DNA of 32,000 nt from Candidatus Baldrarchaeota archaeon. GTDB taxonomy: Archaea > Asgardarchaeota > Baldrarchaeia > Baldrarchaeales > DXJG01. The position numbers and the translations under genes were made by a program. Below the pieces are notes generated by a model. The model saw nothing but the letters and a program-made list of their open reading frames with translations. It was not told where the DNA came from and made no database searches. Below, piece after piece: positions 1,924 to 10,274 of this stretch (within the stretch, counting starts at the first letter, position 1; every line of letters starts with the position of its first letter). The stretch spans positions 299,473 through 331,472 of the forward strand of contig DXJG01000009.1 of NCBI GenBank assembly GCA_019056805.1, given 5' to 3'.

Positions 1924-3483
1924 ATGGTGAGTTGTTTGAAGGTTATTTTAGTTGGGGTGGATGGCGCTACATCTTGGATTATCGAAGAGTTACTTTTCGG
2001 GCTTAGCGGTTTTAATAGGTTAGCAAAAGATGGAATTCTTTGTAATTTGAAAACTACTTTACCGCCTTTGAGTAGTTGTGCTTGGGCTAGTATTTATACA
2101 GGTGTTAAGCCTAGTAGGCATGGTATGTTTGATTTTGTTGGTGTTGAGCACGATTATAACGTTAGAGGCTTAGGCTTTGTTAACGGTTTAAAATTTCCTG
2201 TTTTTTGGAGTTTGCTTGGAAAATTCGGGTTTAAAAGTGTTGTTGTGAATCCTCCAATGGTCTATCCAGCCTTTAAAGTTAATGGTGTTTTGGTTTCAGG
2301 TTGGCCTTCTCCTAGAGTATCTGTTTATCCTGATAGGTTTAGAAGAGTTTTGAAAGAAGTTGGATATAAGATTGATGTTGATGGTTTAGAAGGTCGTTTT
2401 AGGAAAGATCCAGATGCTACTGTTGACGATTTAGTTGAAACTGCTAAAACTCGTGGTGAGGCATGTTTAAGACTTGCTGAGGAGGTTGGAGACTGGAACT
2501 TGTTGTTTCCTGTTTTTACCGTTTGTGATCGGATTCAGCATTTTGCCTTGGGGCGTAAAGAATGGAAAAAATGGGTTTTAAAGGCTTATAGAGTTGTTGA
2601 TGAATTTATTCAGCAAGCTTTGAATTTGTTAAAGGAAGAAGAAGGTCTGTTATTCGTTGTTTCTGATCATGGTTTTCAACCAATTAGAAAATCTTTTCTT
2701 ATAAATTCTTGGCTTGTAAAAACGGGTTTCGCTAAATTGAGATATAGTCGTTTTCGTTCTTTAATTAGAGAATACATTGTTAATAATATTAATTTGAGAA
2801 CTATTTATTGGGGAGCTTCCAACCGAAGACTCGCTACCCTAGTTGGAAAGATTGGTAGTTTGTTTTTGGGCGGGGCTCCTTTACATGGAAGGTTTAGTGT
2901 AAATGATTTCATTTTAAGGAAGACTTTAGCTTTTGCCTCTGGTACTATTAGTCCTACTACTTTCATTTGGATTAATGATGAAAGGTTTAAACAATTTGCT
3001 GTTGAAAAATCGAAGAAATCTGATATAAGAGAAAAAATTGTGGACGGTCTTTTTAAAGTTAAGGATCAGAGTGGTATAGCGATAGTTAGAGATGTTGTGG
3101 AGGTTGAAAATCTTTATACTGGTAATGGTAAAGGAGATATGGTTTCTCCTGATTTAATGGTTGTTGCTAACGACGGATATACTATTGATCCTTGGTATGT
3201 TAGTTCAGGCTATGTGGTTAATCCTAGTGTTTATAGACATGGAGACCATAGTTTTGAAGGAGTTTTTGCCGCCTTAGGGCCATCTCTTAACGATATGAAA
3301 AACTTTAACACTTGCGGCGTCGTTGATATAGCTCCCACGATTTTAAGTCTCTTTAAGATCCCTATTCCCTCTTGGATGAGCGGAGAACCCCTAACTAGAA
3401 TTAACTCGCATTCTGAAGCAAATTTAAAGAATAGATTAAAGCTTAAAGCAAAAATTGTCGAGAAAAAACTTTATGGCTGCTAA
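1924..3483 (+). CDS. Alkaline phosphatase superfamily protein (NPP/type I phosphodiesterase-like), paralog 1, Ser at nucleophile position
   Basis: GVDGA metal Asp, TLPPLSSCAW...TG..P..HG nucleophile region, DRIQH, VVSDHGF, HGDH, DIAPTIL. No signal peptide. Confidence 0.88.
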   Translation: MVSCLKVILVGVDGATSWIIEELLFGLSGFNRLAKDGILCNLKTTLPPLSSCAWASIYTGVKPSRHGMFDFVGVEHDYNVRGLGFVNGLKFPVFWSLLGKFGFKSVVVNPPMVYPAFKVNGVLVSGWPSPRVSVYPDRFRRVLKEVGYKIDVDGLEGRFRKDPDATVDDLVETAKTRGEACLRLAEEVGDWNLLFPVFTVCDRIQHFALGRKEWKKWVLKAYRVVDEFIQQALNLLKEEEGLLFVVSDHGFQPIRKSFLINSWLVKTGFAKLRYSRFRSLIREYIVNNINLRTIYWGASNRRLATLVGKIGSLFLGGAPLHGRFSVNDFILRKTLAFASGTISPTTFIWINDERFKQFAVEKSKKSDIREKIVDGLFKVKDQSGIAIVRDVVEVENLYTGNGKGDMVSPDLMVVANDGYTIDPWYVSSGYVVNPSVYRHGDHSFEGVFAALGPSLNDMKNFNTCGVVDIAPTILSLFKIPIPSWMSGEPLTRINSHSEANLKNRLKLKAKIVEKKLYGC

Positions 3484-3551: not shown

Positions 3552-3779
3552 TTGATTGTTTTGTCAGAAGATAAGGTCGCTGTTTATATCTCTAAAGATC
3601 TATATGAGGAAATTAAGAAACGTGTTGACTCAAGCGGTGGAGAATTCAAAAGCGTCGAAGAATACGTGGAATTTGTTTTGAGCGAGATCGTAAAGGAGGA
3701 AGAAGAGGAAGAATTTGAATATAGCCCCGAAGAAGAAGAAAAAATAAAGGAAAGGTTACGAGGACTAGGATACCTTTAA
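3552..3779 (+). CDS. CopG/ribbon-helix-helix protein with acidic RLRGLGYL tail (RHH-1)
   Basis: VAVYISKDLYEEIKKRV...FKSVEEYVEFVLSEIV is an RHH pattern; tail EEEEKIKERLRGLGYL. GGGAGG RBS at 3546-3551 suggests the true start is TTG 3561. Confidence 0.8.
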   Translation: MIVLSEDKVAVYISKDLYEEIKKRVDSSGGEFKSVEEYVEFVLSEIVKEEEEEEFEYSPEEEEKIKERLRGLGYL

Positions 3780-3803
3780 CATAATAATCAAAATGAACGT
3801 ACA

Positions 3804-4325
3804 CTACACATATTTTAATTCTGTTAATTTTTCCAAAATTTTTTGAACACATTGCTCTGGTGTATCATTTTCCGTATCAACTATTACCTCTGGATTTTCA
3901 GGTTCCTCATATGGATCCGATATTCCTGTGAAGTTTTTTATTTCTCCTTGTATGGCTTTTTTGTAAAGGCCTTTTGGATCCCTTTGGATACATGTTTCCA
4001 CAGAACATTTCACGTAAACTTCAATGAACTTTTCTATTATGCTTCTAGCATAGTCTCTCATTGCCCTATATGGTGAAACTAAACTTACAATAACTGCTAC
4101 TCCGTGTTTAGCTAGCATTTTAGCTAAATATGCTACTCTTCTTCCATGTTTTAATCTGTCTTCCTTTGAAAAACCTAAGTCTTGACTTAAACCTTTTCTT
4201 AGCTCATCTCCATCAAGTACTTCAGTATCCCAACCAAGTTCTCTTAATTTTTCCTCAAGTTTTCTTGCAATAGTTGTTTTACCCGATGCTGGCAATCCCG
4301 TTAACCAAACAACAAATCCCCTCAT
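3804..4325 (-). CDS. cysC: Adenylyl-sulfate (APS) kinase
   Basis: WLTGLPASGKTT P-loop, LDGD, LGFSKEDR, SLVSPY, RDPKGLYKKA, FTGISDPYEEP. ATG 4325 directly follows the stop of the upstream gene (ORF track starts at GTG 4334). Confidence 0.96.
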   Translation of the reverse strand: MRGFVVWLTGLPASGKTTIARKLEEKLRELGWDTEVLDGDELRKGLSQDLGFSKEDRLKHGRRVAYLAKMLAKHGVAVIVSLVSPYRAMRDYARSIIEKFIEVYVKCSVETCIQRDPKGLYKKAIQGEIKNFTGISDPYEEPENPEVIVDTENDTPEQCVQKILEKLTELKYV

Positions 4326-4326
4326 T

Positions 4327-5712
4327 CTATACACCCTCTACTACCTTTCCCTCCATATCTCCTGGTGGTTCTATCTCTAAAAGTCTTAGAATTGTAGGAG
4401 CTACGTCAAGTATATCTATATCTATTTTCTTCCCACCAAAATTTTGGTTTGGATCATAAATTATGTGTATTCCGTATTGACTATGTACAGCATCATCTGG
4501 TCCAGTGTCATTCTCCGGTAAATAAACTGTATTGTGTCCTATTGTTCCTGCCGACCTCCAATATAAGTCGTCAAAGAAAACCATGAGATCCGGCGGTTCA
4601 CCATTTATTTCTGGGTAATATTCCTCAGGTTTTATTACCTTTGTTTCTAGTTTTTCACCACTAGGTCCACGTATATTCTCTATTTTTTCTGCTAGTTCAT
4701 CTCTTACATCTTCGTACTCCTCAGGTTTTATTATTCCTTGTGGCTCTCTACCTTCTACATTTAGGAAGATTCTTGCGTAATAGCCTCCCCATCCCCATGC
4801 TATGGTTTTTTTCCAATCTACTTCTGCTTTCTCCAGCCGTATTTTTTGTTCAGGGTATTTCTTTAGGGTTAGGTAGCCTTCTTTTATTAGCCACTCATTT
4901 ATACATAGTGCCCCTTTCATTCTCTTTGCTCCATGATCGGAAACAACAACAATCTTCGTGTTTTTTGGAATTATTTTTAGAAGCTCTTCAATTTGCTGAT
5001 CTAGGCATTTATAGTAGTTCAAGATTGCATCGCTATATTTGCTATGTGGTTCGTATAAATGGTGTTCTGGGTCAAAGAATTTCCAAAAGGCATGTTGAAC
5101 ACGATCCAACCCTATTTCTACAAACATGAAAAAGTCCCATTTCTTATTTTTAAGCAAGTACTTTATTAATTTGAAGCGTTTTTCTGTCATCTCGTATAGT
5201 CCTTTTAATAATTTGTCTCTTTCCTCTGTTCTAAACGGTATGTCAAAAATATAGTTTCCTACTACTTTTTCGATTTCTTCTTTAAGTTCTGGAGGATATG
5301 TGTATTGTTTCGCATTCGTAGGGGTAATGAAGCAGGATATAAGGTAACCGTTGAGAGGCTTCGGTGGATAGGTTGGTGGTACTCCAATAACTATGGATCT
5401 TTTACCCTTTTCGCTAAGTATGTTCCATACGGTTTTTTCTTTGATTTTTTGGTAGTTAGCTATCCATATATCCGTGTATGAATAGTTTTTGCGATGTCTA
5501 AACCCATATATCCCTAGTTTTCCAGGGTTTTTGCTTGTTGACATTACCATCCAAGCTGGAATCGTAATCGGTGGAACACAACTTTTCATTTTTCCATATA
5601 TTCCATTCTCTACAAGGCTTTTGATGTTTGGTAGTTCATCTAGAAACGCATCAAAAAGTAGTTCAGGTGGCGCTGCGTCTAAACCAATAACTAAAACTTT
5701 TGGTTCACTCAT
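4327..5712 (-). CDS. Alkaline phosphatase superfamily protein (NPP-like), paralog 2, Thr at nucleophile position
   Basis: IGLDAA, SCVPPITIPAW, DRVQH, VVSDHG, DAVHSQYG, DVAPTIL. No signal peptide. Lies between sat and cysC in one operon. Confidence 0.9.
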   Translation of the reverse strand: MSEPKVLVIGLDAAPPELLFDAFLDELPNIKSLVENGIYGKMKSCVPPITIPAWMVMSTSKNPGKLGIYGFRHRKNYSYTDIWIANYQKIKEKTVWNILSEKGKRSIVIGVPPTYPPKPLNGYLISCFITPTNAKQYTYPPELKEEIEKVVGNYIFDIPFRTEERDKLLKGLYEMTEKRFKLIKYLLKNKKWDFFMFVEIGLDRVQHAFWKFFDPEHHLYEPHSKYSDAILNYYKCLDQQIEELLKIIPKNTKIVVVSDHGAKRMKGALCINEWLIKEGYLTLKKYPEQKIRLEKAEVDWKKTIAWGWGGYYARIFLNVEGREPQGIIKPEEYEDVRDELAEKIENIRGPSGEKLETKVIKPEEYYPEINGEPPDLMVFFDDLYWRSAGTIGHNTVYLPENDTGPDDAVHSQYGIHIIYDPNQNFGGKKIDIDILDVAPTILRLLEIEPPGDMEGKVVEGV

Positions 5713-5727
5713 TACATTCGCCTTCTG

Positions 5728-6888
5728 TTACTCAACAAATGGATTTTTCCATTTTAAAATTATTTCTGATATTTCTGGCCTCATTATTTCTTTTGGTGGT
5801 TTTTTGCCTTGTTGTAAGAGCTTTCTTATCACCGTCCCGCTAAATCTTACACGGTATTCTTCTGGGTGTGGACATGTTTTTTCATTCGCCATACCGCCAC
5901 ATTTTTTACATATGAAGAATTCTTTGAAAAATATGGGAATTATTCCTAAGTCTGGGAATTCATCAAATATTTCTTGGGCAGCATATGGTGGGTAAAAGTT
6001 TCCCACTCCTGCATGATCTCTTCCTACTATGAAATGAGTGCATCCAAAGTTTTTCCTTACAATAGCATGAAATATTGCTTCTCTAGGCCCTGCATACCTC
6101 ATTTCTGTTCGTAGTATTGCTAAAACTGCTCTATCTTTAAGATAATAATGTTTTATTAGTTCTTCGTAAGCTGCTAGAATTACCTCATCTTTGAAATCTC
6201 CCTTCTTTTTTCTCCCTATTACCGGATTTATGAATAGTCCATCCGTGAATGTTAGGGCAGTTTTTTGTACATATTCGTGTCCTGTATGTGGAGCATTTCT
6301 TGTTTGGAACCCTACTATTGTTCTCCATCCTCTTTCCTTGAAAAGTAGTCTCGTTTCCACAGGCCATAATGTATATTTATAGTATGGATTTGCTGAATGG
6401 TCTATTAGGTCTATTTTTCCTCCTAGAAGTTTTTCTTTCATTCCATATGTTTTTGCTACTCCTGGATGCGCTGGGTCTTTTATCCCAAACACTTTTTCTA
6501 CATGTTTTTCTTTATCGTAATCATATACTTCCTCCACATGTAGTATGGCTATGAGCTTTTCTTCTTCAAGGCAAATTATTGTTATGTTATCGCCCTCTTT
6601 TACTGTTTTTATCTCTTCTTCGTCAACATCTATCACTATGGGTATTGTCCAAGGAAGATCGTTAGATAGTCTCATATTTTCCAATACATTCAAGTAATCT
6701 TCTTGTATCATTGGGCCCTCTAGTGGACTGAAGACGCCATGAGCAATGTTTTCTATATCTTTGATGTATTCGCTTGGTAATTTTATTTTTGGTAGTTCTA
6801 GTGCTTCTTTCAATCTTCTATCTCTTTCCTTGCCTTTTAACACTCTATTTATGAGTCTCCCTCCGTGTGGCGGTGGCATTTTCGTCAT
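5728..6888 (-). CDS. sat: Sulfate adenylyltransferase (ATP sulfurylase)
   Basis: PHGGRL, FSPLEG, FQTRNAPHTGHEY, MRYAGPREA.FHAIVRKNFGCTHFIVGRDHAGVG, and CKKC...CPH Zn site of the thermophilic type. Confidence 0.97.
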   Translation of the reverse strand: MTKMPPPHGGRLINRVLKGKERDRRLKEALELPKIKLPSEYIKDIENIAHGVFSPLEGPMIQEDYLNVLENMRLSNDLPWTIPIVIDVDEEEIKTVKEGDNITIICLEEEKLIAILHVEEVYDYDKEKHVEKVFGIKDPAHPGVAKTYGMKEKLLGGKIDLIDHSANPYYKYTLWPVETRLLFKERGWRTIVGFQTRNAPHTGHEYVQKTALTFTDGLFINPVIGRKKKGDFKDEVILAAYEELIKHYYLKDRAVLAILRTEMRYAGPREAIFHAIVRKNFGCTHFIVGRDHAGVGNFYPPYAAQEIFDEFPDLGIIPIFFKEFFICKKCGGMANEKTCPHPEEYRVRFSGTVIRKLLQQGKKPPKEIMRPEISEIILKWKNPFVE

Positions 6889-6895
6889 ACTCCTT

Positions 6896-7138
6896 TTAAT
6901 CTATGTAACCAAGAGCTCTTAGTCTTTCTTTTATTTCTTCCTCCTCTTCCTCCGAAAATACTTCTTTCTCTTCTTCCAGTTTTGCAAGGTATTCTCTTAT
7001 TATGTGGGTTACCAAGCTTGAAACCGAAGAAAACTCTGTTTCCTTGACTTTTTCTTCAAGTTTTTTATATAGAGATGTTGGTATTAGAATTGAGGTGAAA
7101 TTTTTGCTTTTTGTTTTTTCTTCGGTCAATTTCATCAT
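6896..7138 (-). CDS. CopG/ribbon-helix-helix protein with acidic RLRALGYID tail (RHH-2)
   Basis: FTSILIPTSLYKKLEEKV...FSSVSSLVTHIIREYL is an RHH pattern; tail EEEEEEIKERLRALGYID; 7 bp upstream of sat. Confidence 0.82.
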   Translation of the reverse strand: MMKLTEEKTKSKNFTSILIPTSLYKKLEEKVKETEFSSVSSLVTHIIREYLAKLEEEKEVFSEEEEEEIKERLRALGYID

Positions 7139-7145
7139 CCTTTAT

Positions 7146-7220
7146 TTTTGTAGTGGATTTACAAAACGACCATATAAACCTCACGGTTATATACATGAAA
7201 ATTCACGTATATATACGTGA
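7146..7220. promoter_or_regulatory. Three tandem inverted repeats, including a perfect 18-bp palindrome TCACGTATATATACGTGA (7203-7220)
   Basis: TTTTGTA/TACAAAA (7146-7152/7160-7166), ATATAAACC/GGTTATAT (7172-7180/7185-7192, one-base mismatch in length) and the perfect palindrome, all within the 86-bp gap upstream of RHH-2-sat. Minus-strand TTTATATG TATA-like box near 7172-7179. Confidence 0.6.
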
Positions 7221-7224
7221 TGGA

Positions 7225-8598
7225 TTAAGAAGTAAAAATCTGTTGAATAGGTTTCCCATCCATATAATTTGGTATTGGAACTTGTAATATCTTTAATATT
7301 GTTGGCGTCAAGTCGTAAAGATTAGCTTCAACTTCTAAGCCTTCAGGAATACCGTGTCCTAGTATAGCTAATATTCCTGGTACGTCTCTTGGATCATGTG
7401 TTCCATCATGTCCTCCATTCCACTTTTCAGACTTTACAATACATTTTTGAGTTTTATATTCCTTTGATTTGCCTCTACTTGCCTGCCAACCTGAATTAAA
7501 AAGTATTATTAGATCTGGGGCCTCCTCTACATAAGGCCCCCAATATACGTCTCGTGTAGCCACATACTTCACTACTTTTTGCCCATCTACCTCTATCTTC
7601 TCTAAATTTTTCTTAATTTTTTGCAGAATCTCTCCGTATTCTTCAGGTTTTATTTTCCCTTGCGGTTCTCTCCCCTTCAAATTTAACCATACATCTCCAT
7701 ACTCATACGCAACCGCCACACTACCTTCAACATCTATTTCTCCCTTAACATCTCCCTTTAGGAAACCTTGTTTATGTAGTAAGCAATTAACTAATACCTC
7801 ACTATGCACCGGACAGAAACCGTGATCAGAAAGCAAAATAAACAAAGTTTCCTCAAGATCTATATTCTCCAGAAACCTAGAAATAATTACATCCATTTTT
7901 TGATAATATCTCTTAACTTTCTCTGTAAACTCATTCTTCTCATATTCTGGATGTCTTTCATCCACATATTTCCAGAAAAAGTGCTGTATACGATCTGTAC
8001 CCATAAACACCGTTATAAAAAAATCCCATTCTTCTTCCTCAAGTAAAAATAAGCTTATATCCATTTGTATATCAGTTATTTCATCTACTCTTTCAAAAAA
8101 CTTGTCCGGTTCCTCCTTAACCCTTTCGAGTAGCTTTATTTCCACATCACCTTTAAACTGTTTAATTCCGAATTTGCCTTGTAATTTTTCTTTTATTTTG
8201 GTTGGATACGGTATCCCTTCATTTTTTGCTAGAAATCCTGGTATTATGAATCCGTTTAACTCTTCTGTTCTTGCCATGGGGACATTTATTACACCCACTT
8301 TTTTGTCATGTTCACTTAATATTTTCCATAGAGTTTTTGTTTTTATTTTATCAGGAGTATTCACTTTTCTTTTGTATGTCCCCTTTTCTCTTGTCATAAA
8401 GCTGAATATTCCATGCTTCCCCGGGTTTACTCCCGTCATAAAAGTTGTCCATGCCACCGGAGTTTGTGCTGGTAACGGCGGTATCGTTCTACCCATTATC
8501 CCCTGCTTTTTTATTTTTCTTAGAGCTGGCAGCGTCTCTATCCATTTTTCTACCAATATAGGTGACAAACCATCTGAGCCAATTACTAAGACCCTCAT
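7225..8598 (-). CDS. Alkaline phosphatase superfamily protein (NPP-like), paralog 3, Thr at nucleophile position
   Basis: IGSDGL, PAQTPVAW..FMTG.NPGKHG, DRIQH, LSDHGF, GGHDG, DLTPTIL. GGGAG RBS; no signal peptide. Confidence 0.9.
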   Translation of the reverse strand: MRVLVIGSDGLSPILVEKWIETLPALRKIKKQGIMGRTIPPLPAQTPVAWTTFMTGVNPGKHGIFSFMTREKGTYKRKVNTPDKIKTKTLWKILSEHDKKVGVINVPMARTEELNGFIIPGFLAKNEGIPYPTKIKEKLQGKFGIKQFKGDVEIKLLERVKEEPDKFFERVDEITDIQMDISLFLLEEEEWDFFITVFMGTDRIQHFFWKYVDERHPEYEKNEFTEKVKRYYQKMDVIISRFLENIDLEETLFILLSDHGFCPVHSEVLVNCLLHKQGFLKGDVKGEIDVEGSVAVAYEYGDVWLNLKGREPQGKIKPEEYGEILQKIKKNLEKIEVDGQKVVKYVATRDVYWGPYVEEAPDLIILFNSGWQASRGKSKEYKTQKCIVKSEKWNGGHDGTHDPRDVPGILAILGHGIPEGLEVEANLYDLTPTILKILQVPIPNYMDGKPIQQIFTS

Positions 8599-8658
8599 TT
8601 TCCAACTCCCTTAAATGATCAAGTACAACCCACGCTTAGGGCGAAACAATTAAATATA

Positions 8659-9666
8659 TCAAACTGCAGCTTTCTGTATCTTTTTAAGTCCTCTCATGGC
8701 TACTATGTATGCTGATGTTGTATGAACGTCTAGTCCCAAATCTCCCGCTATTATCTTAGCACTTATTGATGAGTATGCTGGATTAACCTTTATTAACTCT
8801 CCTTCAACCTTGGGGACTAAAACCTCCATCTGTTGTGTAAACTCCCTTAAAGCCATCTTTGAAATCTTCCTCTTAGCAGTCTTATTACCTTTAGGTTTTG
8901 GTTTAGACAATCTTTCAATAACATAGTATTTTACGCCGTGCTCTCTAGCATACTTCACAAGCTTAGTAAGGGATTCTCTCCTTAAAGAAACCGCCTTCTC
9001 CCTTGGAAATCCATGAGATGTAATCTCCATAAAATGCTCGTTTCTAACGTCTCTCATAATTCCCTGTCTATCAATTATCACCATATTTATCCTATCTGGG
9101 TTAAAGTCAAAGCCGGCAATATGTTCAGTAATCTTCGTCTTTGATTCTTTCCTCATATATTTAACGTAGAGTTCTAGTGGAATATTTATGTAGAGGATTA
9201 ATTTACTGTCTTTTGTACATATACCCGCTCCATAAGATATGTTGGAATTCGTCAATTCTTGAATTATCGGTATGTGTTTCCTTCCAAACTTTACTTTAGC
9301 TTTTAACCATCTATGTTTCCCAGTAGCTGAAGGTATTTTAATTAGCACGATTTCAGTCGACATTAACCTTATGTTTCTATTACCTTTCTCAGCTTTAACA
9401 CCAACCGAATATAATTGTGGTTTCTTAAGTTTGAGATACGGTTGCTCACTATACAGTTTTGCCCTTATGTATGCTGAACGCGAGTACCATTTATTGTTAA
9501 GTATTCTTGACGTTAACAGCTTGATTATTTTGTTTTCTTTTAATCCTTTCTTCAACAGTGAATGAGCATAGTCAACAGCATCTTTAAAGTTCCTCATAAC
9601 GTATAGTAAAAAGGCTTTATCCTCTGCTGAGCTGAGAACGAGCTTTCCCTTAATTGTAGGTCTCAC
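8659..9666 (-). CDS. tnpB: IS200/IS605 accessory TnpB-related RuvC protein lacking the C-terminal Zn ribbon
   Basis: GNRNIRL motif; RuvC-I GFDFNPD, RuvC-II VIERL, VNPAYSS, RuvC-III LDVH; no CxxC pairs. GTG 9666 overlaps the AbrB stop (GTGA); ORF track uses GTG 9678. Confidence 0.8.
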   Translation of the reverse strand: MRPTIKGKLVLSSAEDKAFLLYVMRNFKDAVDYAHSLLKKGLKENKIIKLLTSRILNNKWYSRSAYIRAKLYSEQPYLKLKKPQLYSVGVKAEKGNRNIRLMSTEIVLIKIPSATGKHRWLKAKVKFGRKHIPIIQELTNSNISYGAGICTKDSKLILYINIPLELYVKYMRKESKTKITEHIAGFDFNPDRINMVIIDRQGIMRDVRNEHFMEITSHGFPREKAVSLRRESLTKLVKYAREHGVKYYVIERLSKPKPKGNKTAKRKISKMALREFTQQMEVLVPKVEGELIKVNPAYSSISAKIIAGDLGLDVHTTSAYIVAMRGLKKIQKAAV

Positions 9667-9821
9667 TTCTTTTCCCACTTCTCGACCACCATCCTACCAT
9701 TCTTCTCATCATAGTAAACTACGAGCTTATCCTTTGGTTTAAGATCCCACTTCTCGGCAATCTCCTTAGGTATGGTCATCTTCATTTTGGGTAAAACCCT
9801 ATATACCCCTATTAACTCCAT
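9663..9821 (-). CDS. AbrB/MazE/SpoVT-family DNA-binding protein, 52 aa (missed by ORF track)
   Basis: MELIGVYRVLPKMKMTIPKEIAEKWDLKPKDKLVVYYDEKNGRMVVEKWEKK matches the xTIPKEIxxxxxLKPxDxL AbrB pattern. GGTGAT RBS; stop overlaps the tnpB start. Confidence 0.82.
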   Translation of the reverse strand: MELIGVYRVLPKMKMTIPKEIAEKWDLKPKDKLVVYYDEKNGRMVVEKWEKK

Positions 9822-9837
9822 GGTATCACCAGAAATA

Positions 9838-9871
9838 TTTATAAACCACTGAGTATATAAAAATTTTTAAG
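9838..9871. promoter_or_regulatory. Divergent archaeal promoter region (abrB-tnpB leftward, structured RNA rightward)
   Basis: TTTATAAA, TATATAAA and TTTTTAAG TATA-like boxes in a very AT-rich gap (6 G/C in 9831-9870). Confidence 0.45.
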
Positions 9872-10030
9872 CATCGACCCCTATGAAGAAGGCGAGGGGG
9901 ATGAGCACAGATGAACCCAGATTCGATGATGGGAGTGCTGAATTAGCGTGTAGGTGCTCCTTCAGTCGGGTCTGGGCGACTCACACCCGTGATGAGACAC
10001 TCTGTGTCAAAAGATATTAAAAGATACGGG
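9871..10030 (+). ncRNA. Candidate structured non-coding RNA, family unassigned
   Basis: 77/140 G+C in 9871-10010 versus AT-rich flanks. Hairpins 9872-9903, 9916-9976 (long, with G-U wobbles that pair only on the + strand) and 9996-10008. Repeated (A/G)TGA motifs, ACA after the first two hairpins, T-tract at 10050-10054. Confidence 0.55.
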
Positions 10031-10088
10031 GTGGTTGAACGGCATTAGCTTTTTATTGATTGTTGAGAATTTATTGTGGGGAATTGTT

Positions 10089-10274
10089 ATGAGTAAGGTA
10101 AAATATGTAAATATTTCTATCCCTAAGCCTTTATATGAACGTTTAGAAAAAGCTTTAAAGGACTCTGGCTATAGGAGTCCGACTGAATATATCATTTTCC
10201 TTATCAGGAAACATCTCGCTGACCTTGAGTCTGATGATCTCGATCGTAGATTAAAGGCCCTCGGCTACAAATAA
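10089..10274 (+). CDS. CopG/ribbon-helix-helix protein with RLKALGYK tail (RHH-3)
   Basis: MSKVKYVNISIPKPLYERLEKAL...YRSPTEYIIFLIRKHL is an RHH pattern; tail DDLDRRLKALGYK. ATG 10089 preferred over TTG 10035. Confidence 0.82.
   Translation: MSKVKYVNISIPKPLYERLEKALKDSGYRSPTEYIIFLIRKHLADLESDDLDRRLKALGYK

Follow-up and report, generated by a model that had tools for sequence, protein, structure and literature searches.

The window, i.e., the whole stretch of 32,000 nucleotides analysed here from a Candidatus Baldrarchaeota archaeon, harbors a cassette of four co-oriented genes on the minus strand (7138 to 3804), which is organized in the order RHH-2, Sat, AlkP-2, CysC and does not contain a DHH gene. 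The first gene (6896–7138) encodes RHH-2, a mini-protein of 80 aa, and the gene of the ATP sulfurylase Sat (5728–6888; PF01747, E = 2e-92; NF003166, E = 1.7e-161) starts 7 nt past its stop codon. These are followed by the gene of the cassette AlkP, AlkP-2 (4327–5712; PF01663, Pfam E = 5.1e-50), and, as the last gene, by that of the APS kinase CysC (3804–4334; PF01583, E = 5.5e-63; TIGR00455, E = 2.9e-69). Two further AlkP paralogues and two further RHH mini-proteins are encoded in the window. AlkP-1 (1924–3483, plus strand) is a PF01663 phosphodiesterase/NPP-type enzyme of the AlkP superfamily (Pfam E = 7.6e-30), and 68 nt past its stop codon starts the gene of RHH-1 (3552–3779, plus strand; 75 aa). 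AlkP-3 (7225–8598, minus strand; PF01663, Pfam E = 1.1e-45) ends 86 nt before the start of RHH-2, so that two of the RHH genes lie directly downstream of an AlkP gene. The third one, RHH-3 (61 aa), is encoded at 10089–10274 on the plus strand, where translation probably begins with the ATG at 10089, matching the L009 orthologue; the longest open reading frame begins with a TTG at 10035. All three AlkP paralogues have kept the metal ligands and the Thr/Ser nucleophile (D12, T/S50, D203, H207, D259, H260, and H410), with Ser as the nucleophile residue in AlkP-1. The nucleophile Thr50 of AlkP-2 aligns with the catalytic nucleophile Thr of the Xanthomonas NPP; the chain 7mw8 has an Ala at this position and is taken to be a nucleophile mutant.

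The cassette corresponds to an archaeal gene cluster that has already been published for P. yayanosii (pych_17520-17560) and T. onnurineus (TON_1704-1707), where copG is followed by genes for an ATP sulfurylase, a DHH pAp phosphatase, a type I phosphodiesterase/NPP, and an APS kinase (PMC8268124, PMC4463584). Gene families and gene order are the same, with a small copG/RHH gene in front and the gene of a PF01663 enzyme flanked by sat and cysC; the window differs by the missing DHH gene and by two extra AlkP–RHH pairs. These papers describe the copG product as a putative transcription factor, and for the NPP a function as pyrophosphatase is speculated or reported (PMC8268124, PMC4463584).

Upstream of RHH-2 there are two operator-like inverted repeats on the minus strand, TCACGTATATATACGTGA (7203–7220) and TCATGTATATAACCGTGA (7181–7198). 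The two repeats are located just upstream of a TATA-like TTTATAT at 7172–7178, at a distance of approximately 40 nt from the start of RHH-2. In L008, L009, and L031, the second one is also found in front of the RHH-2 orthologues, and promoters of cassettes that begin with an RHH gene have operator-like palindromes in three archaeal lineages. These conserved promoter palindromes are indirect evidence that the RHH proteins may bind DNA sequence-specifically as dimers, and a putative enzyme-sensing autoregulation would likewise be based on them. With 19.8 bits for RHH_5 and 16.8 bits for RHH_1, RHH-2 stayed below the respective Pfam cut-offs of 26 and 20.5, RHH-3 reached 14.2 bits, and RHH-1 yielded no RHH match in the Pfam search. 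In a PDB search, the RHH domain of NikR was the nearest solved relative of the profile built from the RHH family (A1; E = 0.02). The AlphaFold2 model of RHH-2 shows an extended N-terminus, helices at residues 21–32 and 39–58, and a tail helix at residues 63–76. With an extended segment before the first helix and a core pLDDT of 87–91, the protein fits the strand-helix-helix topology of approximately 45 residues, whereby a model of the monomer is unable to show the strand itself. At the positions that would face the DNA according to the prediction, the residues are not basic.

A C-Terminal Tail Shared by RHH Proteins and AlkP-Superfamily Enzymes

The sequence-only reading of this stretch had proposed that the three RHH mini-proteins share an acidic tail ending in RL(R/K)xLGY, whereas their cores diverge and the neighbouring AlkP enzymes are tail-less. 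The translations agree exactly with the tails quoted there: EEEEKIKERLRGLGYL in RHH-1 (module Y57–L75, encoded at 3720–3776), EEEEEIKERLRALGYID in RHH-2 (module F61–D80, encoded at 6899–6958), and the short DDLDRRLKALGYK in RHH-3 (encoded at 10233–10271). The motif R-L-[RK]-x-L-G-Y-[hydrophobic] within three residues of the C-terminus occurs in all three RHH proteins and in none of AlkP-1, AlkP-2, AlkP-3, Sat, and CysC. A [YF]-[ST] pair with an acidic run approximately 18 residues before LGY is present in two of them (YSPEEEE in RHH-1, FSEEEEEE in RHH-2), whereas RHH-3 has only DLESDDLD, without [FY]S or acidic run. The cores diverge, RHH-2 being 38% identical to RHH-1 and 34% to RHH-3, and also in the wider family the core varies, with R72, L73, L76, G77, and Y78 as the invariant positions. 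The A1 profile matches RHH-1 at E = 7.7e-24 and RHH-3 at E = 6.9e-17. In a six-frame scan of the 1.92-Mb genome (1.4 million ORF residues), [RK]L[RK].LGY within five residues of a stop was found in these three reading frames only, all inside 7 kb, which is more than chance. Matches of the tail to the Pfam families PG_binding_2 and POTRA (E = 0.05–0.08) were taken as chance, and a proteasome docking of the HbYX type was dismissed, since most members of the family do not have the Tyr at the penultimate position.

AlkP-2 and AlkP-3 stop at the last motif of the catalytic domain (...GDMEGKVVEGV and ...NYMDGKPIQQIFTS, respectively). AlkP-1 ends in a basic extension, NLKNRLKLKAKIVEKKLYGC, which likewise lacks LGY. 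This extension had been suggested to be a degenerate tail; the Odin orthologue of AlkP-1, which is also followed by an RHH-1 gene, ends in the same basic helix, and a descent of this conserved helix from the LGY module is not indicated. The CysC protein does end in ...ILEKLTELKYV as had been noted, but it does not qualify as a fourth tail, since the [FY]S and acidic part is missing and the segment is the kinase's own terminal helix, which is covered by TIGR00455.

We defined the module from 128 AlkP and 26 RHH proteins, which gave a consensus of approximately 20 residues: [YF]S, an acidic run, and [IV]xERL[RK]xLGY[ILMF]. Among the 150 best cluster representatives found by phmmer, which belong to one PF01663 subfamily, 134 carry it at their own C-terminus. 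In these AlkPs, L, L, G, and Y of the tail show the same invariance as the metal ligands, and hhalign placed the tail of the RHH family onto that of the tail-bearing AlkP family (A2) over 28 columns (probability 96.7%, E = 3.2e-10). In 301 Asgard genomes, all tail-only matches in long reading frames that were examined turned out to be AlkP-superfamily proteins (five PF01663, one sulfatase). The statement of the sequence-only reading that RLxxLGY is a common C-terminal motif of sulfatase, AlkP, and sulfotransferase proteins was verified for PF01663 AlkPs and for two sulfatases of PF00884. It was not verified for sulfotransferases, as none of the four small ones examined has the tail, and neither do the three DHH proteins examined. 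A word-indexed search with the last 50 residues of one tail-bearing AlkP returned the query alone, so that the census of tails in cis comprises the 150 phmmer representatives and the tail-only matches from the 301 genomes. RHH proteins are not the only carriers of the tail, and these comparisons support the view that it is a portable module which is usually carried in cis by AlkP-superfamily enzymes. The cis-tail AlkPs are encoded in polysaccharide clusters with no Sat or CysC nearby, and hence PAPS genes as such are no prerequisite for the presence of the tail.

The AlkPs of sulfate-activation cassettes present the opposite picture. The order RHH, Sat, AlkP, CysC was found in 60 of 80 related loci, and all 41 cassette AlkPs that were checked lack the tail, ending 0–12 residues beyond the catalytic domain. 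An RHH protein is present in 73 of the 76 Asgard genomes that have a cassette AlkP, the three exceptions being partial or at contig edges. In L089, a tail-less member of the cis-tail subfamily is preceded by an RHH-tail gene. As for the other genes of the window, an RHH-1 orthologue sits downstream of AlkP1 in L008 and, among the loci with RHH-3 orthologues (L009, L006/L007), L009 has the AlkP-3 gene directly divergent from the RHH-3 orthologue. As judged from these genome comparisons, the distribution is complementary as the earlier reading had anticipated, i.e., the tail is either on the enzyme or on an RHH protein co-encoded with a tail-less enzyme, and nearly all genes of tail-bearing RHH proteins belong to sat/cysC/AlkP loci rather than occurring independently of them. 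In an Archaeoglobus locus (L003), the RHH gene adjoins ThiS, glycosyltransferase genes, and an LPG-synthase-like gene, and not sat or AlkP. Cassettes that lack an AlkP gene show the same degree of tail conservation (RHH, Sat, DHH, small sulfotransferase, CysC; RHH, Sat, CysC; small sulfotransferase, RHH), so that AlkP may not be its sole partner. The genomes in question encode tail-less AlkPs elsewhere; the partner in these cases must be such an AlkP or something else.

Predicted Docking on AlkP-2 and Competing Readings of the Tail

For one of the nine possible RHH–AlkP pairs, AlkP-2 with residues 46–80 of RHH-2, a complex model was calculated, which scored 0.92 compared to 0.01 for the best of three controls. 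The score mark is reached by 58 of 80 solved complexes and by 2 of 110 mismatched pairs, counts which are only rough as own alignments were used. The runs share at least 98% of the contacts, and the partner has a pLDDT of at least 75. In the model, the amphipathic tail helix lies in a groove of AlkP-2 formed by residues 84–88, 115–116, 128–134, and 157–161, and the terminal G-Y-I-D turns into the active site, where the invariant Tyr78 contacts Thr50, Phe71, and Trp308–Tyr311. The groove residues F71, N86, Y115, P116, and P131 are 75–100% conserved in the cis-tail family, and AlkP-3 differs at several groove positions. The PDB offers no similar solved complex and, as relatives, only distant NPP and PhnA structures. 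In the lone RHH monomer, the tail helix already has a pLDDT of 77–85, similar to the tail in the model of the cis-tail AlkP P0102 (81–84), and thus tail pLDDT alone says nothing on docking. As a prediction, the model supports binding of the RHH-2 tail to AlkP-2. Since the predicted site is the catalytic cleft beside the nucleophile, it suggests a gating, active-site completing, or substrate-like role rather than that of a plain scaffold. The docking peptide in trans of the sequence-only reading is supported by prediction for AlkP-2, a docking to Sat or CysC is not supported, and that reading as a whole is partly supported.

Taken together, we lean toward the explanation that the module, here with [IV]K-E-R-L-[RK]-x-L-G-Y-[ILM] after the acidic run, is a docking peptide for the PF01663-type catalytic domain of AlkP-superfamily enzymes, which the RHH protein supplies in trans in the cassette. 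Most members of the large AlkP subfamily hold the tail on their own C-terminus behind a flexible linker, while in the sulfate-activation cassette the small RHH protein of the same operon would supply it to the tail-less enzyme. The window would then comprise three such pairs, in which RHH-1 belongs to AlkP-1, RHH-3 to AlkP-3, and, within the cassette, RHH-2 to AlkP-2. An RHH dimer would present two tails, whose binding would gate or complete the active site and/or couple the amount of free RHH protein to the state of the enzyme. Free RHH protein would probably sit on the palindromes at the operon promoter, and the outcome would be an autoregulation of PAPS synthesis of the trigger-enzyme type.

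The conservation of the tail in AlkP-less cassettes could also mean that it binds a common third partner or a pathway enzyme other than AlkP, such as Sat, the small sulfotransferase, the DHH pAp phosphatase, CysD/N, or a membrane component. AlkPs and RHH proteins would then both join one sulfation machinery via the tail, and the modelled RHH–AlkP contact would be an artefact. It would be in line with this that the RHH gene is most often directly upstream of sat, that the cis-tail AlkPs are encoded away from Sat and CysC, and that CysD-type proteins in L006 and L098 as well as many CysC proteins have a similar ...RL+xLGY[LM] end. However, the CysC end belongs to the kinase fold as described above, the carriers in cis found so far are AlkP-superfamily enzymes only, the small sulfotransferases and DHH proteins examined are tail-less, and the AlkP-2 model stands out from its controls with reproducible contacts. 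We therefore regard a third partner or a pathway enzyme other than AlkP as unlikely.

The modelled contact of Tyr78 with the nucleophile Thr50 would also fit a tail that is a substrate or carrier and more than an anchor. Either the AlkP-fold enzyme or the small PAPS-dependent sulfotransferase would then O-sulfate, phosphorylate, or nucleotidylate the invariant Tyr by the acidic run, and this covalent modification would switch the RHH regulator or pass the group on. Acidic residues around the Tyr are typical of tyrosine sulfation sites. AlkP2 and the PAPS-type small sulfotransferase share one cassette slot, between Sat or DHH and CysC, and in L106 and L107 a small sulfotransferase gene immediately precedes the RHH-tail gene. 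Moreover, the AlkP-superfamily proteins VNG1056C and VNG1057C of Halobacterium salinarum are N-glycan sulfotransferases (PMC11980604). On the other hand, approximately 90% of the enzyme subfamily in polysaccharide clusters has the tail in cis, as would be expected of a structural or gating element more than of a regulatory substrate, and the T. onnurineus cassette homologue is referred to as a pyrophosphatase in PMC4463584 and PMC8268124, which cite Lee et al. 2009. Altogether, a modified tail appears distinctly unlikely. Its more specific form, in which the invariant Tyr is a covalent acceptor or carrier and the tail a swinging arm, with O-sulfation or another esterification of the Tyr taking place in the AlkP-fold active site or by the small PAPS sulfotransferase, is a long shot. 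If true, the RHH mini-proteins would serve as sulfo-carriers or sulfo-sensors, and the cis-tail AlkPs would be transferases that load themselves and decorate glycans. Finally, that the RHH proteins are ordinary autorepressors, whose tail helix would mediate their own oligomerisation or cooperativity, comparable to the tetramerisation of the Mnt/Arc type, and would resemble the AlkP tails by convergence, would suit the invariably leading, co-oriented RHH gene, the promoter palindromes, and the tail helix of the monomer model, but is very improbable given that the profile–profile match includes the [FY]S and acidic part, that the motif is genome-wide unique to three RHH genes adjoining AlkP genes, and that its distribution complements the AlkP tails.

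Relation to Known Systems and Significance

In trigger-enzyme systems such as TnrA/GlnR with glutamine synthetase in Bacillus, the C-terminal tail of a transcription factor docks on a metabolic enzyme, by which the state of the enzyme can set gene expression. By analogy, the RHH proteins would likewise combine a small DNA-binding protein with a short conserved C-terminal peptide that is here predicted to bind a pathway enzyme. The differences are that TnrA/GlnR have a MerR fold instead of RHH, that the enzyme family is another one, and that their peptide is not known to be part of the enzyme itself, whereas here it normally is. RHH type II antitoxins of the CcdA, ParD, and RelB type also have an N-terminal RHH dimer for DNA, a leading RHH gene, and a flexible C-terminal peptide that wraps the partner from the same operon, as is predicted here. 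However, profile searches of the window revealed no toxin family near the RHH genes, whose neighbours are AlkP, Sat, CysC, and a TnpB-like gene; the partners would be metabolic enzymes, the tail also occurs in cis in the enzyme family, and the genes are conserved vertically in sulfation loci, unlike mobile TA modules.

VNG1056C and VNG1057C (Agl30/Agl31) are cytoplasmic or membrane AlkP-superfamily proteins and, like the tail-bearing AlkPs, encoded in glycan clusters; they add sulfate, and they worked with C-terminal tags (PMC11980604). They are sulfatase-like (arylsulfatase family) and not PF01663, but show that the AlkP fold can act as a transferase in loci of this kind. For the PF01663-type enzyme of the cassette and its thousands of relatives from polysaccharide clusters, pyrophosphatase, helper enzyme, and non-canonical sulfotransferase are all candidate functions. 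Here, a near-invariant peptide that is predicted to reach the catalytic Thr provides a concrete experimental handle, since its removal or addition can be compared with activity.

A full-text motif search of the papers on the cluster found no mention of a shared tail or of a copG–NPP contact, and publications dealing with the tail were likewise not found by the full-text search. For the "putative copG regulator" of earlier publications, the predicted docking provides a defined and testable partner, and archaea as well as Aminicenantes bacteria may possess a simple mechanism by which the transcription of PAPS synthesis is tied to the state of one enzyme.

RHH proteins of the window and their shared tail

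The organism is an Asgard archaeon with a genome of 1.92 Mb and 35% GC, and the nearest related loci come from MAGs labelled Odinarchaeota and Baldrarchaeota. On the plus strand, the locus comprises a gene for a DUF1616 membrane protein (659-1681), AlkP-1 (1924-3483), followed by the ribbon-helix-helix (RHH) gene RHH-1 (3552-3779), and RHH-3 (10089-10274). The minus strand carries CysC (4334-3804), AlkP-2 (5712-4327), Sat (6888-5728), RHH-2 (7138-6896), AlkP-3 (8598-7225), and a TnpB-like gene (9678-8659). PF01663 matches all three AlkP proteins (E 7.6e-30 to 5.1e-50), in which the metal ligands and Thr/Ser nucleophile are intact.

The translations yielded exactly the three RHH tails that the sequence-only reading had given, and the RHH cores do diverge, with an identity of only 34-38%. 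When the whole genome was scanned in six frames, [RK]L[RK].LGY at most five residues from a stop was found in these three RHH ORFs only. The absence of the tail from the neighbouring enzymes was likewise borne out: AlkP-2 and AlkP-3 stop at the final catalytic-domain motif, and AlkP-1 ends in a basic extension that has no LGY and is kept in the Odin orthologue. The sharing of the tail among the RHH proteins of the window is thus confirmed and is not a matter of chance. The only other C-terminal LxxLGY of the genome, without the R-L-[RK] part, belongs to a 111-residue ORF on contig C12 (about 90-430, +; ...EEILVALGYLT).

The protein collection contains 92 relatives of RHH-2; they come from Asgard archaea, Archaeoglobus, Omnitrophica, and, at about 75% identity, Aminicenantes/Saccharicenans bacteria. 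Across 26 aligned RHH sequences, I19, R72, L73, L76, G77, and Y78 are invariant and the consensus tail reads vFSEEEEEKVKERLRALGYID, which makes the tail the best conserved part of the family. Pfam RHH matches lie under the Pfam cut-offs, among solved structures the RHH domain of NikR is the closest relative (E 0.02), and the AF2 monomer has an extended N-terminus, two core helices, and a tail helix; DNA binding is something that we only infer. Two inverted repeats (7203-7220 and 7181-7198) are located immediately 5' of a TATA-like element, about 40 nt ahead of the RHH-2 start, and the repeat 7181-7198 is kept in the Odin and Baldr relatives. Another palindrome, TTAATTAAATATAATTAA, is common to cassettes from Thermoplasmatota and a Freyarchaeon, where it lies between the TATA element and the start codon. 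The Aminicenantes loci have a sigma-70-type promoter, at which no obvious repeat was seen.

Distribution of the tail between enzymes and RHH proteins

The sequence-only reading had named RLxxLGY as a common C-terminal motif of sulfatase, AlkP, and sulfotransferase proteins. No paper on the motif was found. Among the compared loci, it is carried in cis, on the enzyme itself, by the PF01663 protein P0102 (554 residues) and by a sulfatase (PF00884 plus a lectin-like domain). When 1.84 billion cluster representatives were searched exhaustively with P0102 by phmmer, 4648 relatives were obtained at E up to 1e-30, and among the best 150 of these, 134 end in the tail ([YF]S, acidic run, [IV]xERL[RK]xLGY[ILMFV]), four more in an MGY or FGY variant, and one in LKY. 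In an alignment of 128 AlkPs, the L, L, G, and Y of the tail match the catalytic Asp/His in invariance. Profile-profile comparison of the RHH and AlkP families places tail on tail over 28 columns (96.7% probability, E 3.2e-10), and all six opened tail-only matches of the RHH profile in long ORFs of 301 Asgard genomes were AlkP-superfamily proteins (five PF01663, one sulfatase). These data verify the motif for AlkP and sulfatase proteins, whereas for sulfotransferases it was not verified. CysD-like proteins (PAPS_reduct family) next to RHH-tail genes have ends resembling the last nine residues of the tail (L006:5591-6406, ...MQKLRSLGYM; L098:4166-4993, ...MERLRLLGYM), and CysC ends in ...KVLKRLEELGYL in many Aminicenantes.

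The genes of tail-bearing AlkPs belong to polysaccharide clusters, together with genes for GT4, GT2, Wzx, Wzy, and WecG and without adjacent sat/cysC. PF01663 paralogues often adjoin each other there in groups of two or three (L112, L149, L150); in L149 and L150, tail-less members of the cis-tail subfamily adjoin a tail-bearing paralogue. Such a mix of copies hints at hetero-oligomers that share one tail. In Halobacterium salinarum, the AlkP-superfamily proteins VNG1056C and VNG1057C are N-glycan sulfotransferases (PMC11980604).

At one genome per species, the tail pattern has at least 599 matches, and 503 of them are RHH relatives. RHH>Sat>AlkP>CysC, co-oriented, is found in 60 of the 80 best loci; in a further 18, RHH is followed by Sat and/or AlkP, and the remaining two lie at contig ends. 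A cassette of this kind is known from Thermococcales and other archaea, described as a "putative copG transcription factor" (pych_17520), ATP sulfurylase, DHH pAp phosphatase, type I phosphodiesterase/NPP, and APS kinase (PMC8268124); for the NPP, a role in PPi removal is speculated there. PMC4463584 cites TON_1705 as a pyrophosphatase. In Aminicenantes (L010-L087), the archaeal-type cassette is widespread, with RHH proteins 55-77% and enzymes about 60% identical, which suggests inter-domain transfer of the entire cassette between archaea and Aminicenantes; a NAD-dependent sugar epimerase gene comes next.

The Odin locus has the order AlkP1>RHH-1, and in the Baldr locus (L009) RHH-3 and AlkP3 are directly divergent, without TnpB in between; by these arrangements, each AlkP paralogue of the window is genetically paired with one RHH-tail gene. 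Since the L009 orthologues are directly divergent, the block 8659-10008 looks like an insertion in the common promoter region of RHH-3 and AlkP-3. It contains the TnpB-like gene, which lacks the Zn ribbon as judged by NCBIfam partial matches, a short upstream ORF (9663-9821), and a GC-rich structured stretch (about 9878-10008). In L006 and L007, RHH-3-like and RHH-2-like genes stand in tandem next to cysD/N-like genes and an AlkP. In the Odin locus, Sat and AlkP2 are separated by a gene for a TauE/SafE-type sulfite exporter (L008:1512-2270; PF01925, E 6.9e-27); L009 has an equal-sized gap there, and in the window, where the gene is absent, Sat adjoins AlkP-2.

Enzymes and RHH proteins are complementary in their possession of the tail. 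The cassette AlkP2 orthologues are tail-less: 41 of 41 checked stop 0-12 residues past the catalytic domain. A strong RHH-tail match is present in 73 of the 76 Asgard genomes with an AlkP2 orthologue, the other three being contig-edge or partial cases. In L089, an RHH-tail gene precedes a tail-less member of the cis-tail AlkP subfamily; L088, a possible second such case, was left out as its protein end is masked.

Predicted docking of the tail on AlkP-2

The sequence-only reading had proposed that the tail is a docking peptide supplied in trans. Modelling of AlkP-2, with 42 orthologues in the alignment, together with RHH-2 residues 46-80 gave a complex score of 0.92, the best of three controls reaching 0.01; this score is attained by 58 of 80 complexes of known structure and by 2 of 110 mismatched pairs, a comparison that is only rough because our own alignments were used. 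At least 98% of contacts agree between runs, with a partner pLDDT of 75 or higher. The model supports binding of the RHH-2 tail to AlkP-2 as a prediction. No similar complex was found in the PDB, where the nearest solved structures are distant NPPs and phosphonoacetate hydrolase, so that recall of a known complex by the model is unlikely.

The modelled interface involves RHH-2 residues 60-62, 65-66, 68-70, and 72-80, and AlkP-2 residues 49-51, 70-72, 84-88, 115-116, 128-134, 157-161, 292-293, 308-311, 386-390, and 401-406. Tyr78 is predicted to contact Ile49, Thr50, Ile51, Gly70, Phe71, and Trp308-Tyr311. The catalytic Thr of Xanthomonas NPP (SLTFPNH) is the residue with which Thr50 aligns; in chain 7mw8 it is replaced by Ala, and this is taken to be a nucleophile mutant. 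The groove residues F71, N86, Y115, P116, and P131 are 75-100% conserved in the cis-tail family. Together, the Tyr78-Thr50 contact, the Thr50 alignment, and the groove conservation place the predicted tail site in the catalytic cleft and not on a remote surface.

Cassettes without AlkP2 and possible consequences of docking

About 19 Asgard genomes have the RHH protein without an AlkP2 orthologue. The gene order of the cassette is there RHH>Sat>DHH phosphatase>small PF00685 sulfotransferase (about 190 aa)>CysC, or RHH>Sat>CysC, and the tail is as conserved as elsewhere, which does not fit a simple AlkP-only story. Tail-less PF01663 proteins are encoded elsewhere in these genomes, so tail partners may exist there. 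The small sulfotransferases (L091:3057-3644, L066:5166-5726, L106:3753-4331, L107:5821-6405) share SGxxRSGTSMMM near the N-terminus and a C-terminal ...KLYRQR; their gene either occupies the cassette slot otherwise held by AlkP2 or, in two loci, lies directly upstream of the RHH-tail gene. L106 also encodes a 1055-residue protein with an arylsulfate sulfotransferase domain (ASST, PF05935; 254-3421), convergent with the RHH-tail gene; since the donors of ASST enzymes are aryl sulfates, a link to a sulfated Tyr is conceivable.

Overall, the tail is a real, portable, and strongly selected module of AlkP-superfamily enzymes, and in sulfate-activation cassettes it is the RHH protein, not the enzyme, that bears it. 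Among the proposed mechanisms, in-trans docking of the tail into the AlkP catalytic cleft is the best supported. Such docking might gate or complete the active site, or it might sequester a repressor. It could also be that the tail Tyr itself is modified, an idea kept alive by the slot sharing of AlkP2 and the small sulfotransferase and by the modelled position of the Tyr at the nucleophile.
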